Below are positions 30,869 through 56,405 of a stretch of 64,000 nucleotides of DNA, one piece after another. Both the position numbers and the translations under genes were made by a program. The stretch is from positions 143,530,001 to 143,594,000 of the forward strand of contig NC_091984.1 in the NCBI RefSeq assembly GCF_044704955.1, given 5' to 3'. A model generated the notes under the pieces. That model ran no database searches. It saw only the letters and a program-made list of their open reading frames with translations, and had not been told where the DNA came from. How positions within the stretch are numbered: position 1 is the first letter of the stretch; every line of letters begins with the position of its first letter. This DNA is from Pristiophorus japonicus (taxonomy: Eukaryota).

Positions 30869-31229
30869 TGATAGAGAATTCAAACTGGCTGCATTCAGAC
30901 AGGCTGTGAAAATTCACAGACACCAAGTCAGAGCTGCTATGTGAGTGGGAGCATGTTGCATTAAGTCATCAATCAACTTGACATTTTAGGATTTTGGGTA
31001 GCGAGCCAATTAAAAGGTTAAAAGACTATAAATTAAGCCAATAAGGTCAAAGAAGGGGAGTTCTTTTCTGTAACTTGATCCAGGTATAAGTACAGCCATT
31101 TTGACCATGTGATATCAGAAGGACAAAGACCTGGCTTAAAGCCAAGAGCTTCTTACTGCTGCCAAAAATAAAGTGACATTAAAACTACAATCGGAGTTCG
31201 TATTTCATTGGAAATTAAGAGATCTAACA
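30869..31229 (+). repeat. ERV 5' LTR
   Basis: TG...CA, 361 bp, two CCAAT boxes, TATAAG near 31085, AATAAA at 31167; about 94% identical to the 3' LTR by manual count. Confidence 0.93.
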
Positions 31230-31233
31230 ATTT

Positions 31234-31251
31234 TGACGTCACGAACACGAT
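31234..31251 (+). promoter_or_regulatory. Primer-binding site, tRNA-Ser(CGA)-like
   Basis: TGACGTCACGAACACGAT 4 nt after the LTR; 16/18 to TGGCGTCACGAACAGGAT, the complement of a vertebrate tRNA-Ser(CGA) 3' end as I recall it. Confidence 0.7.
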
Positions 31252-31517
31252 CGCTGAGGGAAGAAACTGAATTTTGGACATCGGACCTACATACTGAGGT
31301 AAGGACTCCTCTTTATAAAAGTCCTCAGTCAAAAGTCTAAATTCGCCTCTCCTTCTTCGTGATTCCAAAAGCCTCCGGTTTGCGAACCCTCCAGTTGGTA
31401 GTCGGTTCGAGGTCCCATCGACGTCTAAACTTCGGCGGTGTGTTAGTTAATTAATCACCGACCTATTGATCGGCTAGAAAGCTGACGACTCGAGACTCCA
31501 GCAAAAAAATCAGTATT

Positions 31518-33078
31518 ATGGCAGCAGGAGATAAGAGCAAAGAATTGCCTACAACTGTTAAAAGTGGGCAAGCACCACCTGAGGTTTCGCTAGATGAAAT
31601 TCTCGAACAGTTGAAAGAATACATGGAGCAACAATTCAATTTATCTAAAACCTATATTAAGATCGAACAAAAGTACGGAACCTCCAAAGGACAATGGTCC
31701 TTGGACGAGATTAAAAAGGTCTGGGGAAAAACGATCCGTGTGAAAAATAAAGAGCGAACTAGATGGTCCCTAGCCATTATGGGAACGATCCGAAACTGGA
31801 ATGAAATTATAATGCGTTCCCAACCTGATCGAGAACTGACCAGTACAAAGGATCAATTGCAAGCTGTTTGTGCACAGCTGCGACAGAAAAAGCTTGAACT
31901 TGAAAAGCTGGAAGCGGAAGTTAAATATTTTAAAGGTGAAATTACAGAATGGAAAAAATCATTAGGTCAAGAGACAGTAATAGGAAAAGGAAAATGTATC
32001 GGTCAATTCCCAGGGTACCCATGTTTGGATAAATTAAAAGCGCAAACCCCAAGACACGACCGAGGAATAGATACGAATTCTGAATCCTCCGACGATACAG
32101 GGTCGGAGGATGAAGAATTAGGGGTGCACTTTGCCCCATTTAAAAAAAGACGAGTTGTAGTCAAATCAGAAGAGACTGCGGATGAGGGCGCAACCAAAAA
32201 AACGAGGAAAAGGGTGTACGAAAAATACTTGGTTCATGATCCGGCAGACCCAGAGAAAATTGATAAATGGTCCAAGGAATTGCCCAATCCAAAGAAAGGG
32301 GGAGTGAAAACGTGGGACCAATTGGACCGCTTAAGAAATATATATCAACTTCATCCCTGGAACGGAGTGCAAATTTTGACCATAATGGTGCCAAAAACAC
32401 AGGGAAGAAAATTGCACGACAAGATAGAAGAAGCTTTGGGGCAGGATGAGCAAGAATTAGACACAGGGTGGGAGGCAATTAAACACTGGCTGCAAGCCTT
32501 CAGTCCAGCTAAGACAGACTGGGGAAAATTGCAGCCTGCCAACAGAAAGGAAGAGAGGAGGTCCTGGAGTATGCCGAGCGGTTTAGATGCACGTGGCTAG
32601 AGCATTCGGGTATGAATAATACGGATGAGGAAATGGGTGAACAAGTGTTTGGACCCCTGAAAGCAGCTTTCGTGGCAGGTCTAAAGCCAGAACTGTCCAA
32701 AATGCTTAAGGTAGTGTTACCGGACTGGGAAGGTAGAGGAACTACCTTTGCAGCATAGGTGGATCGATGTAACCAATTAGATCGGGATATGGGAGCTAAA
32801 GTCTGAGCTGTACAGGCTATGGGATGGAAATCCCAGAATTCCGATAAACAGTCATTAGGAAAATTACCCGGAAAATGTCATTATTGTGGGAAGGAAGGTC
32901 ACTGGGCCAAGACGTGCAGGGCAAAACAGCAAGGTCGTGGCTGGGGAAGAGGACGCAGCCAGGGATACATTCAGCCAACAAGCCAGGCTTGTCACAAGAT
33001 AACGACCTCATAGAAGCATTTAAGCGACTGACAATACAACAACAGAAGGAGTTACTTGGGATAGCAAAAAACAATTAG
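31518..33078 (+). pseudogene. gag: ERV gag (frameshifts and stops)
   Basis: 360-aa ORF from 31518; MHR-like CQQKGREEVLEYAERF in a shifted frame near 32537; zinc knuckle CHYCGKEGHWAKTC near 32876. Confidence 0.9.
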
Positions 33079-36000
33079 AGCCCACCCTGGCCCCCCTCCT
33101 CGCACTGATACAACAGAGGGGAGATGGGCTATATATAACTGTGAGGGTGGGCGATAAGGATGTGGACTGTCTTTTAGACACAGGGGCGGAATTAACATGC
33201 TCACCCCTACAAAATGGAAACTTTTTGCCATTGGATGGTAGGGCATGTACAGCCTATGGAGTTGGAGGCCATAAAATGGAAATTAAAAGGACAACACCGG
33301 TACTTATAGGGCTGGGTCCACATGAACTAACCACGCCGGTCTGGATAGGCCCAGTAGATCAACCCCTTTTGGGAATGGACGTTCTAATCCAAATAGATTC
33401 ATCGTTGCATTTTGAGGATGGTCGGGTGACATGGCCAATTAGAACTTTGAAGAAAGAAGAATTGAAGGAACACCCGATATGGGCTAAAGATAAGAACGAT
33501 TGTGGCCTACTCCAGATGGAGCCTGCGCCATTTACCGGGACCAAGCCTCCATGCACTAAACAGTATCCCATCAGTCCAACTGCCATCGCGGGAATCTTAC
33601 CGGTTATTCAGCAATTGGAGAAACAAGGGGTGCTTATTAAAACGCATAGCTCCTCCAATAGCCCCGTGTGGCCGGTAAAGAAATCTAATGAGACTTGGCG
33701 TTTGACTGTCGATTATAGGAAAGCTAACCAGTGTATTGATCAAAAAGCTCCTTTGGTCGCAGATCCCGCCACCATTTTTAATGCCCTCAAACCGGAACAT
33801 AAATATTTCTCGGTTATAGATATGGCCAACGGATTTTGGTCGGTGCCTCTGGCACCGGAGGTTCGACAGTGGTTTGCTTTCACGGTCCAAGGACAGCAGT
33901 ATACTTGGACCCAGTTACCGCAGGGTTTCCACAACAGTCCTACGGTATTCCACATGGCTTTACAAAGCCATTTGCGAGAATTACCTCCCCTGTCATCCAC
34001 AGTCATCCAATATGTAGACGATATCCTGCTAGCTTCAACCACGGAAGAACAGCATGAACAAGATTTACGAGCTTTGCTGGATCACCTTCGGCTGAAAGGA
34101 CAGAAAGCCAGCATCGACAAAGCACAAATATCCCAAGAAAAGGTTGTATACCTGGGACAAAAGATTTCACAAGGAAAGAGAGAACTTACCCAGGATAGAA
34201 CTGCAGCCAATTGGGCTGCTAAAAAACCCACCACTATTCAGGAACTAAGGTCTTTTTTGGGATTGTGTAACTTTAACAGAAATTGGATTGACTCCTTCAC
34301 ACAGCTTGCTCAGCCATTGAATGATATTTTAAAGGGGAAACGTGCCTCTAAAGAAGCCATCACCCTCACTAAGGAACAGCAAGAGGCCTTCCTGAGTTTG
34401 AAAAAGGCTTTGTGTTCGGCACCGGCTCTAGGAATCCCCGACAGTGGTAAGCCATTTATCCTGTTTGTTCATGACAAAGAAGGATATATGACAGCGAAAC
34501 TGACACAAGCACATGAGGATCGGCAAAGACCTATTGGCTATTATTCGGCAAAACTGGATGCGGTAGCCCTTGGATGGGGAAGTTGCCTAAGGTCTATGGA
34601 AGCTACATGTCGAACGGTAATGATCACTGTGGGTCTAGTCCTCGACCAAAAGCTGATTGTCAAGTGTCCCCACAATGTACATGCTTTGCTGTCTCTGAAT
34701 AGAATGTCTCAGGTGACGGCAGCTAGATGGACCCGCTGGACAGCAGTTTTGGAAGCTCCAAATCTCCATATCGTCCGGGCCAGCCCGGTTGATCCCGCAA
34801 CTATGCTCCCGATGTCAGAATCGACGGAGCAAGAGCGGGGAGAATGTGAAGAGCATGACTGCGTGGAGATTTAAAAAGAAACAGAAGAAGCAGCCTTAGC
34901 AGCAGAGGAGCCTCTACACAACCCAGACCTCATCCTGTTTCCAGATGGTTCCTCCTTTGTTGACAATGGTACCAGAAAAGCAGGATGGGCAGTTACAACC
35001 TTATATGAGGTAGTGGCAAAAGGATGTTTACCCTCAGGAACGTCAGCACAACAGGCCGAGTTACGGGCTCTGTCAGAAGCATGTCGAATAGCAGAAGGAC
35101 AGACAGCTAATGTCGACACAGATTCACGTTATGCTTTTGGAGTCGTTCACGACTTTGGTCAGTTATGGCGGAAAAGAGGATTCCTCACTGCTGCTGGTAC
35201 ACCTATCCGAAATGGAAAAGAAGTCCGAGACTTACTGGAGGCCATACAATTACCTCAGGAAGTGTCCATCCTGAAGTGTAAGGCCCATACAAAGGAAAAT
35301 TCCACAGAAGCTCAGGGAAATGCCCGAGCCGACCAGGCAGCTAAAGATGCCGCCTCACAGGGCGTTCCCCCAGAAGAACCAACACAGATGTGCAGATTGA
35401 AAGCACTCAGGACTCTGACACGAGACATTCAAACAATGCAAGGCGAGTGCTCCCGAGAGGAAAAATGGACATGGATTGAGGCAGGAATTAAGCTATGTGA
35501 AGATGGTGTCTGGAGACAAAGAGTTACCGACAAGCCAGTTGCGCCACAAGTGCTTATGCCTTTTTTAGCCCAACAGATCCACTCGTGGGGACACTTGGCC
35601 TCACAACAGATGACGGCACGGTTCCAGAAAAGCTGGTGGGGTCGGAGATTTAAAAAACATGCCCGGCTGGTAACAGACCGCTGTGTGGTCTGCCAGAAAA
35701 ATAATTCTGGACCCATCACGGTAATGCCCCAACTGAGGCCTCCTGCCCCTGTCGGACCATTCCAGCATCTGCAGGTTGATTATATATCTCTTCCTTCATG
35801 CCAAGGATACACTAACATTCTAGTCATGGTCGACAGACTCTCTAGATGGGTAGAAGCTGTCCCAACTAAAAGAGCCACAGGCAATCACACTGCAAAGGTC
35901 TTGTGTAAGGATTACATTCCCCGATGGGGAGTCCCGAGTAGCATTGACTCAGATCAGGGAACACACTTCACAGGTGCTGTCTGCCAAGAAGTCTGTAGGT

Positions 36001-36546
36001 TACTGAACATTACATAGGATTTACACTGTCCTTATCATTCACAATCATCAGGACAAGTAGAACGAATGAATCAAACTCTGAAACAACAGCTTGCCAAATA
36101 TCACCAAGAAGGAACACCATGGCCCCAGGCATTACCAATAGTGTAGCATTAGGGCAACCCCGAACAGAACTACAGGTCTAAGCCCATTTGAAATTATAAC
36201 AGGAAGAACCATGTCGCTGCCAGGAACTATCGATTTACGGAAAGCTGATGTTTACTTAATGAGTGACACTTTGTTATCATACTGTCAGAACTTAACCAAT
36301 GCTATTAGTTCTGTTTCCTGACAGGTATCGACAGCTTGGGGTAATCCACCTGAAGGAGGACACGACATCATCCCGGGAGTCTGGGTGTATGTGAAAAAGT
36401 TGCATAAAGAACCTTTGGGTGTCAAGTGGGAGGGATCTTATCAAGTGTTATTGACCACCCAGGCAGCTGTTGAAGTCCAAGGAAAGAAAGCCTGGATCCA
36501 CGCTTCACACGTTAAACGAGCACCCGTAACTGAAGCTGAAATCTAA
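33072..36546 (+). pseudogene. pol: ERV pro-pol (PR, RT, RNase H, IN), disrupted
   Basis: LLDTGA; LPQGF and YVDD; DGSS/AQQAEL/TDSRYAFG; H-H-C-C, LQVDY, DSDQG, SSGQVERMN; C-terminal WEGSY...WIHASHVK. Stops at 34872 and 36015. Confidence 0.95.
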
Positions 36547-36569
36547 TAAGGACAATTACTTTTTGCCAA

Positions 36570-37914
36570 AATATATAAATTTACTGTATTACTGATTGAA
36601 GGTATCCTAGGCATAGACCTACTTCTTACTAGCCGACCCTCTGCACCAAAGGGAAATAGTAGGGTAGCAAGGGAATTACATGTAAATACCTTTTTATATA
36701 TGTCATACATTTATGCTAAACAAGGTAACATTTCTAGTTGTTGGGGTGTGCGCATATTCCTATTTACTCAAAGGGAGGGATTCCCTTGAGGCCAGTTCCT
36801 TGAATATCTCGGAAATGGCTGAGTGGATAATTAATCAAAACAAAACAGGCAATGCGTTTCAGGATCAGGAAAACTGGGCACGTAAATGGAAGTCAGCAGG
36901 TTACAATCTGACTACCTTTGAAGGGGGATACGAACCGTGCTACAATAATTCCAAACGGCCCCCATTTTTTGTTGTCACTAATACAACGGGAATAGGAAGA
37001 CCGGGGGAATCGGTCTGTCTGATTATAAACATGAAAGGAGGCCAAAATATGGGGTATAGTAACTGCTCCCGGAATTATAATATAATCAAGCCACGGAACC
37101 GTCCAATCTGGGCCGATGTGGGAATTCTTAACCTAACGGGGATTCTGAATAAAACGGATGGAAAAGCGTGGACAGGCCCCGGAGTGTTGCTGACAAAGAA
37201 ACAGCTAACATTCATTGCCTATAATGGCACCTATTGGGTGTGTGGCCACAAGGCCTACCCTTGGCTGCCCCAGAATTGGACGGGATCCTGCTATTTAGCC
37301 TACATTGTGCCTTATATGTATCATATAAAGTCACTGTCGGAACACGTCCTAAGAGAGCTATCACAGAAACAGAGAGGTTCTTTGCCATTCTGATTCCCAG
37401 GTATGGGATCGCCAGACTGGCAAGAGAATCCATTAACATGGCATCCGTTGTGGAACGGGTAGCCAATGATACCTCAGAGGCCCGAGTTAAAATCAATGCA
37501 GAAATGGTAGCAATCCGCACAATAGCCCTACAGAATAGACTGGCACTTGATTACATCCTGGCTGAAAAGGGAGGTACTTGCGCCCTACTCGGAACTGAGT
37601 GTTGCACATATATCCCAGATAGCTCCGAACAAATTACCCACTTAACGGAGCATATCCAAAAGGAGGTAGAAAAACTTAAGCAACCCCCATCATTCACTTT
37701 GTGGAGTGGAGCTACTGAATGGCTAGGTTCAATAGGAACTTCATTGGTGGAAGGTTTAATTCTATTTGTTGTAATTATTTTACTTTTATATTGTTTGTTT
37801 ATGTTGATTAAATGTTGTTGCGACCAGGCGGCTGTAGCTGCTGTCCCACATGTGAGACACCTTGCAGGTCCCAGCAGACCATCTGTACATGGCATAGAGG
37901 TATGTTATGCTTAA
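36570..37914 (+). pseudogene. env: ERV env, gamma-type, frameshifted
   Basis: CW(V)C motif near 36739, RPKR furin site, ISD LQNRLALDYILAEKGG, CX6CC (CALLGTECC) and hydrophobic anchor. Confidence 0.93.
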
Positions 37915-38177
37915 GGGAAGGTTGTTTACTGGTTGAATTAAGATATTGATTTGGATTAAATTGGAATAAGGTTAATTAACCTACTAAAACCAGACTCCAT
38001 TGTGGCCACGATGGAATTCGGGTTGGTGTAAATTTGTGACGAAGCTACTAGTGGCGAAACACATCAACAAATTTTAGAAGGAGACACTATTAAAATCTAT
38101 GAAATTATTTTGAAGAATGTTTAACCAGTGATAGCTGATGTTTTATGATTCAGTTTGTGAAAGAATCAAAGGGGTGA

Positions 38178-38538
38178 TGAATCGAGAATTCAAACAGGCT
38201 GCATTTAGACAGGCTGTGAAAATTCACAGACACCAATCAGAGATGCGACGTGAGTGGGAGCATGTTGCATTAAGTCATCAATCAACTTGACATTTTAGGA
38301 CTTTGGGTAGCGAGCCAATTGAAAGGTTGAAAGGCTATTAATTGAGCCAATAAGGTCAAAGAAGGCGAGTTCATCTCTGTAAATTGATCCAGGTATAAGT
38401 ACAGCCATTTTGACCATGTGATATCAGAAGGACAAAGACCTGGCTTAAAGCCAAGAGCTTCTGACTGCTGCCAAAAATAAAGTGGCATTAAAACTACAAT
38501 CGGAGTTCGCATTTCATTGGAAATTAAGAGATCTAACA
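38178..38538 (+). repeat. ERV 3' LTR
   Basis: Direct repeat of 30869-31229, preceded by the purine-rich tract AAAGAATCAAAGGGG. Confidence 0.93.
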
Positions 38539-39268
38539 ATATTCCAGGTGAGGCCTCACTAAGGCCCTGTACAGCTGCAGGAAGACCTCCCTGCTTCTAT
38601 ATTCAAATCCCCTTGCAATGAAGGCCAACATACCATTTGCCTTCTTTACTACCTGCGTGCCCACTTTCAGTGACTAATGAACCATGGCACCCAGGTCTCG
38701 TTGCACCTCCCCTTTTTCTAGTTTGCCGCCATTCAGATAATATTCTGCCTTCGTGTTTTTGCCCCCAAAATGGATAACCTCACATTTATCCACATTATAC
38801 TGCATCTACCATGCATTTGCCCACTCATCTAACCTGTCCAAGTCACCCTGCTGCCTCTTACAGTCCTCCTCACAGCTCACAATGCCACCCAGTTTAGTGT
38901 CATCCGCAAACTTGGACATATTACACTCAATTCCTTCATCTAAATCATTAATGTACATTGTAAAGAGCTGGAGTCCCAGCACTGAGCCCTGCGGCACTCC
39001 ACTAGTCACTGCCTGCCATTCTGAAAAGGACCCGTTTATCCCGACTCTCTGCTTTCTGTCTGCCAACCAGTTCGCTATTCACATCAGTATATTACCCCCA
39101 ATACCATGTGCTTTGATTTTGCACACCAATCTCTTGTGCGGGACCTTGTCAAAAGACTTTTGAAAGTCCAAATACACCACATCCACTGGTTCTCCCTTCT
39201 TCACTCTGCTAGTTACATCCTCAAGTGGTTGACATTTAACTGCCCTGTGAAATGGCCCAGTGAGTCAC

Positions 39269-50163: not shown

Positions 50164-50177
50164 CAATACGTGAGTGA

Positions 50178-50700
50178 TGGGGGGGGAGAGAGGAGGGGGA
50201 GTGAGGGGGAGGGGGGGAGAGAGGAGGGGGAGTGAGAGTGAGGGGGGGAGGAGATGGGGGAGGGAGGGAAGGGAGGGAGTGGAGGGGGGAAGGGGGGAAG
50301 GAGGGGAGGGGAAGGGAGGAAGGGGGAGGAGGAGAGGGGAGAGAGGAGGGGGGAGAGAAGAGGGGGAGAGAGAAAGGCAGGTGGAGAGAGAAGGAGGGGA
50401 GAGAGAGAAGGGGGAGTTAGAGAGAGAGGGGGAGAGAGAGAGAGGGGGGAGAGAGAGAGGGGGGGAGAGAGAGAAGGGGGAGAGGGGGGGAGAAAGGTGG
50501 GGGAGAGTGGGGGTGGAAGAGAGGGAGAGAGGAGGGGGAGAGAGAGGGGGGGGAGAAAGAGGGGGGATGGGGAAGGGGGAGGAGGGGGAGGGGGAGAGAG
50601 GGAGGGGGGAGAGAGAGAGGGGGGAGAAGGGGGGAGAGGGAGAGGGGGGGAGAGGGAGAGGGAGGGGGGGAGAGCGGGAGGAGGGGGGGGAGAGGGCGGG
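50178..50700 (+). repeat. Polypurine (G/A) low-complexity tract
   Basis: About 520 bp almost exclusively G and A. Confidence 0.95.
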
Positions 50701-50799
50701 CCGAGCGTCGGCGGAGGGAGGGAGGGTGGCATGAGCGTCTCCGGGGGGAGGGAGGGTAGGAGGGCCGAGCGTCGGCGGGGGTAGGGAGGCACAAACGTC

Positions 50800-55940: not shown

Positions 55941-56405
55941 GCAACACAACATTTCGCTTGCAGACGGAGCCCGTTGTTCAAGGAGCACAAAGAGGTGAGG
56001 CCTGTGTGAAGGGGACTTTCATTCTCCAGCAATTCCGTGGCCCCAGGGTTACCGTCTGATGGGGCGGGAAGGGCAGCTGGGAGATTTGTCCCAAACACGT
56101 CGGATCCCCAACTCTCCTGGGCACTACCACAGGCAACTCGTCACAGAGTGAGAGGGAGGGAGTGAGTGAGGGACAGGGAAAGAGAGTGAGTGAGGGACGG
56201 AGTGAGGCGGAGTGAGTGAGGGAGGGAGGTGGAGGGGGAGAGGGAGGGAGTGAGAGAGGCAATCAGAGAGAGAAACAGAATGAGAGAGAGAGAGTGAGAA
56301 AGAGAGAGAAAAAGTGAGGGAGAGTGAGACGCTGAAAAAGACACAGACACAGACACACACACAGACAGAAAGAGGGGGAGAGAGACTGAGTGAGCCAGGG
56401 ACGGA

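Follow-up and report, generated by a model that had tools for sequence, protein, structure and literature searches.

The 64,000-nt window C8:143530001-143594000 of the 5.9-Gb genome of the shark Pristiophorus japonicus contains a broken 7.7-kb provirus (~30871-38539) of an endogenous retrovirus (ERV) whose pol gene lies in the -1 frame relative to gag. The gag-pol junction very probably operated by programmed -1 ribosomal frameshifting at an A AAA AAC heptamer, with a predicted stem-loop 7 nt downstream. The frame relation, the in-phase heptamer, the constant spacer and a gag stop one or two codons on are found in three families of the element. A first-pass annotation of this DNA had read the junction as an apparent -1 frameshift in a class-I-like ERV, and the family-wide frame, the phase of the heptamer and the spacer support that reading, with the ribosomal event itself deduced from sequence. 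What is conserved here is a recoding signal of a familiar type, met where it was not expected. In the window copy gag, pol and env are all disrupted, and production of Gag-Pol from this copy is impossible.

The gag-pol junction

The features of the junction in the window, all on the + strand, are as follows.

32876..32917, +, single CCHC zinc knuckle, above the zf-CCHC profile cut-off; anchors the gag frame
33021..33023, +, TAA that shuts the pol frame upstream (observed letters)
33066..33072, +, slippery heptamer A AAA AAC (exact letters)
33066..36546, +, pro-pol in the -1 frame, with protease LDTGA at 33174, reverse transcriptase (RT) YVDD at 34011, RNase H and integrase
33073..33079, +, 7-nt spacer with the gag stop TAG (33076-33078); 7 nt in three families, with differing letters
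33080..33152, +, predicted stimulatory stem-loop; outer helix 33080-33088/33144-33152
33089-33093/33126-33130 and 33096-33101/33118-33123, +, inner helices of the predicted stem-loop (fold prediction)

All the letters on which the first-pass annotation relied are in place: AAAAAAC at 33066-33072, TAG at 33076-33078, TAA at 33021, AGCCCA at 33079 and TGGGCT at 33125. The -1 frame is closed upstream by the TAA and open from 33024 on through protease and RT, as had been described, and no Met occurs in it between the TAA at 33021 and the protease site. The junction therefore has the layout of a frameshift signal, with an overlapping -1 open reading frame (ORF) that lacks its own start, an X XXY YYZ heptamer in phase and a predicted structure at a distance of 5-9 nt. 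In this copy a private lesion near 32970 has shifted the zinc knuckle at 32876 out of the phase of the heptamer, which bears out an earlier caveat that gag carries further frame lesions. The knuckle-to-protease distance is 298 nt in the window and its two near-identical duplicates and 299 nt in most other copies. A slippery word by itself is weak evidence, since 20 such words occur in the coding span; the knuckle-to-protease stretch of copy L007 holds a single one, in phase. A contig from a second organism spans 33026-33300 without a gap and has no listed change in the heptamer or stem arms. The listing of sequencing runs names no RNA holder of the junction; run X9 reaches just the end of this stretch, and X10 matched nothing.

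In the proposed mechanism, the majority of ribosomes would terminate Gag at the TAG. A minority would pause at the stem while tRNA-Lys and tRNA-Asn slip one base back in tandem, and the shifted ribosomes would read on into protease, RT and integrase to make Gag-Pol.

Frame relation across copies and families

Family 1 copies were chosen without the junction in the query, by one search with RT-only DNA and one with a protease-RT protein from teleosts. The count covers 54 loci, after exclusion of the window and both of its duplicates, of two loci that were repeated and of one that belongs to another family. Pol is at -1 relative to the knuckle in 40 of the 52 that could be scored, in frame in 6 and at +1 in 6; 2 are unscored. 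The copies that depart from -1 have different private indels, such as a change in a C run or a two-base loss within protease. A set gathered with a junction query gives -1 in 25 of 30 loci, the window among them. The protein search scored 150 matches, nearly all with 47-50% identity to its query. Of 30 loci fetched, 29 are family 1, which therefore has many copies.

The three families are ~66-70% identical to one another. Family 2 (21 copies) was reached via a locus 67% identical at the junction, and family 3 via a weak protease match, with 30 copies fetched of 40 scored. Phase is kept both before and after the heptamer, with pol at -1, in 13/21 copies of family 2 and 16/30 of family 3. The query copies of both families are themselves out of phase, so copy selection did not favor -1. 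The -1 relation is the majority in all three families, and a pol frame continuous with the gag TAG, the outcome that had been set against the frameshift reading, is not the family relation.

The knuckle-to-heptamer distance is 198, 186 and 174 nt and the heptamer-to-protease distance is 101, 110 and 110 nt in families 1, 2 and 3, and all of the changes between families are multiples of three. The heptamer, located allowing one mismatch, is exact in 71/77, 16/16 and 22/26 located copies of families 1-3, with 6, 5 and 4 copies unlocated. The Gag tails read K-N-D-stop, K-N-stop and K-N-S-stop, and the stop falls 1-2 codons past the heptamer. When a single natural copy from each family is aligned, 43% of the 540 columns are identical. 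Unbroken identity extends furthest, over 8 nt, at two places: the heptamer plus the preceding C and the 3' stem arm.

Three other features of the copies were recorded. Family-3 copy L161 has seven A at the run. A two-base loss just 5' of the 3' stem arm (window 33140-33143) recurs in L046, L047, L053, L076, L111 and L117, which belong to two families, and is probably a deletion hot spot. Copies L005, L009 and L027-L029, on three contigs, have in common an early TGA that cuts the gag tail 17 codons short of the normal stop and marks either a CpG hot spot or a sub-lineage.

The predicted stem-loop

The fold of the 88 nt after the heptamer (33073-33160), which the first-pass annotation had singled out for folding, is stable at -39.5 kcal/mol (z -3.8, 0/200 shuffles equally low), as a longer stem-loop than the one it had drawn. 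Its proposal of a structure downstream of the heptamer is supported by the predicted fold, but its two helices have a probability of 0.000 in the fold of 33073-33190, where the pairing probability of GCCCACCCT/AGGGTGGGC is 0.75-1.0. Forcing the AGCCCA/TGGGCT outer helix costs 18 kcal/mol, and this candidate was rejected.

The outer helix begins 7 nt past the heptamer in all three families despite different spacer letters, and 26/27 of its cells are paired when one copy per family is compared. Family 2 has two wobble changes in this helix, and family 3 has one compensatory change (U-A to C-G) and one mismatch. The helix alignment contains two two-sided changes, one of which comes from the L061 row of a cod-like relative and was not counted as evidence. 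The first six outer pairs are all present in the minimum free energy structure of 70/77, 14/16 and 18/26 copies of families 1-3, and the median fold z is -3.5, -2.4 and -1.1 (30 shuffles per copy). The 5' arm with its fixed spacer is better evidence than the 3' arm.

Relatives with two probable recoding strategies

The clade members P0001-P0007, P0052, P0372 and L061 come from teleosts and gar. Their RTs are 51-67% identical to that of the shark element, compared with ~45% or less for the other RTs compared, and their Gag proteins are homologous (E 8e-21 and 6e-24 for teleost relatives). The nearest protein with a species name, 88% identical over 22% of the query, comes from Pristiophorus japonicus itself. 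Searches for DNA of these relatives returned none from viral contigs with the alignment, none from prokaryote genomes and one from metagenomes.

L061 adjoins a cluster that holds a cod protein, and its homologous Gag and Pol share one frame. Its junction, GAT GAT TGA CTA G, has an in-frame stop, UGA CUA G, where the shark element has its heptamer; UGACUA is a type II readthrough context (PMC13517186). The L061 junction lacks a slippery word, and its fold is not stable (z 0.1-0.6). Four Gag ORFs of its family stop at the same residue, and the pol frame is taken from the L061 contig alone.

The zebrafish-type family has the shark arrangement. Two of its Gag ORFs end in QEQEKN-stop, and in a closely related family the ORFs of the pol frame carry STTRPGKKLI. 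A -1 overlap fits 12/13 positions, the best +1 fit reaches 4, and 10,000 shuffles reach at most 10. As judged from these protein ends, the -1 overlap forces A AAA AAC or A AAA AAU. Astyanax-type Pol ORFs have no stop over the 50 residues before the catalytic Asp and carry F-K-L 38 residues before it, a hint of U UUA AAC, which this tripeptide would fit. The corresponding distance to the catalytic Asp is 37-40 residues for K-K in the shark families, 38 in the zebrafish type and 39 for the L061 stop.

P0372 (Danio rerio, XP_073791153.1) is annotated as a single Gag-Pol fusion of 1632 aa, with EKKL at the place of the EKN-stop of sister Gag ORFs, and may be a copy with an altered A run or a corrected gene model. 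The clusters P0236-P0246, P0284 and P0305 contain hundreds of zebrafish-type Pol fragments from one NCBI assembly set, with 389 in one cluster, and represent a large expansion of the clade.

Phylogenetic position

Three RT trees were built on 257 columns, with 118 rows, 57 hand-picked rows and 54 rows. For the 118-row tree, 64 of 176 RT segments were dropped as distant or second matches. For the 54-row tree, 14 rows were dropped and 11 class II, foamy and gamma rows were added; these carry labels from the motif that fetched each, and WEHV-1 is named by its source. L093_rt and L146_rt were left out because their rows crossed frameshifts and gave false long branches. Class II is represented by five alpha/beta-type rows, and the trees hold no delta, lenti, named ERV-L/ERV-S or XtERV-S row.

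The element falls in a fish clade of its own, with support of 100/99; the first-pass annotation had suggested that a YVDD RT and gamma-type env combined with frameshifting would mark a distinctive lineage. The clade is sister to gamma plus epsilon and not nested within them (96/87 with 57 rows, 98/97 with 54 rows). Class II lies on a long branch within the gamma/epsilon sister group in the 54-row tree, a placement among gamma-like rows that is probably an artefact. The approximately unbiased (AU) test rejected joining the clade to class II (p 0.0044) and to epsilon-like rows (p 0.018); a grouping with gamma alone was outside the AU tests. RT bit scores are 184 for foamy virus, 181 for murine leukemia virus (MLV) and 79 for human immunodeficiency virus (HIV). 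A snakehead-like or class III (clade Huo) identity was also rejected, as the RT tree, which has no named ERV-L or ERV-S row, groups the element with neither L137, the snakehead-like genome, nor ERV-L/S-like rows.

The label class-I-like holds in a loose sense: YVDD and a gamma-type env, with its immunosuppressive domain (ISD) and CX6CC motifs, are present, the RT lies outside gamma/epsilon, and gag and pol do not share one frame. Of the class II characters, RT membership is absent and a frameshift type of pol expression is present by anatomy. Frameshifting was probably gained independently of class II, in a fish lineage beside gamma and epsilon, because the RT tree places the clade there. We consider it likely that the element belongs to a deep, unnamed fish lineage by class I that acquired -1 frameshifting independently of class II and uses either this or UGA CUA G readthrough at one codon position: the shark and zebrafish types have A AAA AAC, Astyanax perhaps U UUA AAC, and the cod-like type readthrough.

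A published Pol group may already include this lineage. Anamniote Pol groups in the literature include Pol-LE.1, LE.2 and LGE.1 (bioRxiv 2021.11.23.469661) and clade Mu (PMC6001957). A motif look-up in the CmiERV data (PMC4422223) neither placed a CmiERV in the clade nor set one apart from it. The ESM Atlas, searched with the Gag of relative P0398, returned unnamed best clusters with zf-CCHC and assigned no family.

Weighing of the evidence and rival explanations

Several observations weigh against programmed frameshifting as the explanation. Every copy is decayed and gag is open in 0/23; the ATG-to-heptamer frames of 23 copies are evenly spread (7/9/7), and the ATG and heptamer share one frame only by modal segment lengths. 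Family 3 contributes the weakest figures, with just 16/30 copies at -1 and a weak fold (median z -1.1). Just one compensatory change was found in the outer helix, no pseudoknot (including H-type) is common to the three families, and a search of Rfam at E 1 returned 0 matches. Since the 3' arm doubles as coding sequence for the first protease strand, protein constraint can account for its conservation, which does not count as independent evidence. For the teleosts, the -1 overlap is read off the proteins of two closely related families. The RT tree is built on 257 columns, and the probable long-branch artefact of class II may affect the AU test too.

The offset could be a post-insertion indel in a readthrough virus that was spread by an amplified defective master. 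Reviewed fish retroviruses have in-frame stops (PMC13517186), the same-clade L061 has an in-frame UGA CUA G, and 6/52 family-1 copies are in frame. The in-frame copies bear different private indels, however, and the offset, heptamer and spacer are common to three families 66-70% alike across in-frame length changes; with the same overlap in the zebrafish-type family, an indel origin is extremely unlikely. Polymerase slippage that adds one A to some transcripts, with no slip by the ribosome, would suit the A6 run, the seven A of L161 and the EKKL of the fused zebrafish Gag-Pol P0372 at this site, and RT slippage at the HIV shift site has been reported (PMC5737442). A stem fixed at 7 nt and an in-phase X XXY YYZ suit a ribosome instead, and the final C, which polymerase slippage does not need, is kept in nearly all copies. 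We regard polymerase slippage as very unlikely.

If Pol were expressed in the manner of foamy viruses, by its own start or by way of a spliced RNA, the heptamer would be incidental. The RT is equally close to foamy virus and MLV by bit score (184 versus 181) and an AG lies 3' of the heptamer, but this AG follows an A-rich stretch and not a pyrimidine tract, no Met precedes the protease site, and the clade is apart from the foamy rows in the tree. This route leaves the conservation of the heptamer unexplained and is given a comparably small chance. Programmed -1 frameshifting at A AAA AAC is the reading retained.

Anatomy of the provirus and its surroundings

The remaining features of the provirus, all on the + strand, are as follows.

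30871..31229, +, 5' long terminal repeat (LTR; approximate ends), 94.5% identity with the 3' LTR over 361 nt; Kimura two-parameter distance 0.055
31234..31251, +, primer binding site for tRNA-Ser(CGA), complementary at 16/18 positions to a tRNA-Ser(cga) gene of the same genome
31518..33078, +, gag, broken; lesions of frame near 32525 and 32970, stops at 32756 and 32804
36686..37914, +, gamma-type env split over two frames; TLV_coat E 1e-10, ISD-like motif at 37528, CX6CC at 37579
38181..38539, +, 3' LTR (approximate ends), pairs with the 5' LTR

For the primer binding site, the second-best match within 10 kb carries 6 mismatches. Gag_p30 gave no match at E 0.1 with gag scanned as broken pieces, and Gag 31850-31990, ahead of the capsid region, is heptad-like by eye and probably a coiled-coil. 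The pro-pol of the window copy has a stop at 34872 and lesions after 36015.

Outside 30871-38539 the window contains many dispersed repeats, one of which the provirus appears to interrupt; their ORFs look like the ends of RTs of what we take to be long interspersed nuclear elements. Long GA-rich low-complexity tracts lie at 50168-50789 and 56146-56367. Pairs of proviruses ~148 kb apart occur three times on C8, at 143.41/143.56, 145.22/145.37 and 147.35/147.50 Mb (L029/L002, L028/L001 and L027/L003). Private changes are common to the three pairs, so the window probably sits in a segment of 150 kb or more that is present three times.

Comparison with known systems

The genome L137, which we take to be snakehead retrovirus (SnRV), resembles the shark element in its fish host, YVDD and single knuckle. 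It differs in its stop, an in-frame UAG GGC context as described for SnRV (PMC13517186), and in a Pol that is 31% identical, a Gag without a match and a separate branch in the tree.

The site listed for mouse mammary tumor virus (MMTV), intracisternal A-particles (IAP), bovine leukemia virus (BLV), human T-cell leukemia virus (HTLV), bovine immunodeficiency virus and equine infectious anemia virus is AAAAAAC followed by a spacer of 6-9 nt (PMC3835772), and the fetched class II genome L168 has AAAAAAC in the gag frame. The shark junction is like the gag-pro sites of MMTV, IAP, BLV and HTLV, which have A AAA AAC, a 6-8 nt spacer and a gag stop soon after (PMC3835772). Those viruses shift twice, at gag-pro and pro-pol, whereas the shark element would shift once, with pro and pol in one frame, and compact pseudoknots are listed for them in place of the predicted 73-nt stem-loop. 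RT identity to class II is just 26-31%, and a common clade is rejected.

The element shares one knuckle, a one-frame pro-pol, YVDD and a gamma-type env with the gamma and epsilon viruses and class I ERVs MLV, walleye dermal sarcoma virus (WDSV) and walleye epidermal hyperplasia virus (WEHV), SSSV (salmon swim bladder sarcoma virus) and zebrafish ERV (ZFERV). Those viruses have an in-frame stop (PMC13517186), unlike the -1 relation seen here, and the broken gag pieces give no Gag_p30 match. Knuckle and protease share one frame in the three gamma genomes fetched. XtERV-S of Xenopus is similar in its serine tRNA primer and in a class I-type transmembrane protein on a non-gamma pol, and differs in being ERV-L-like, with YIDD, a dUTPase, tRNA-Ser(AGA/TGA) and an in-frame TGA (PMC8278194; outside the tree). 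Within the clade, the zebrafish-type family likewise has a -1 overlap and the cod-like L061 differs by its in-frame stop.

Implications for retroviral recoding

The background given in the first-pass annotation, readthrough in gamma and epsilon viruses (PMC13517186) and A AAA AAC in beta and delta viruses (PMC3835772), agrees with these sources. A 2026 review names WDSV, SnRV, SSSV and ZFERV as readthrough viruses (PMC13517186). Because gamma, epsilon, SnRV and XtERV-S (PMC13517186, PMC8278194) and Ovex1 are described as readthrough, gain of frameshifting within the clade is the simplest reading. A literature search that left Repbase, Dfam and most subscription papers outside its scope found no report of -1 frameshifting in fish ERVs of this kind.

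Translational strategy has been called a 'global' marker that parts the gamma from the beta side of the retrovirus tree, and 17% of gamma-like ERVs were placed at -1 with the imprecision ascribed to post-integration indels (PMC1224870). For ERV annotation this is a caution, as the -1 offset of a class-I-like element would there be counted as damage. The gamma/beta marker rule would be broken by a lineage next to class I that uses frameshifting, and such a lineage would mean that strategy can change within one clade. The shark, zebrafish-type and cod-like junctions would then be matched natural cassettes for how readthrough and frameshift junctions turn into each other, and the lineage, if the reading is true, would document how a retrovirus in nature has changed between readthrough and frameshifting.

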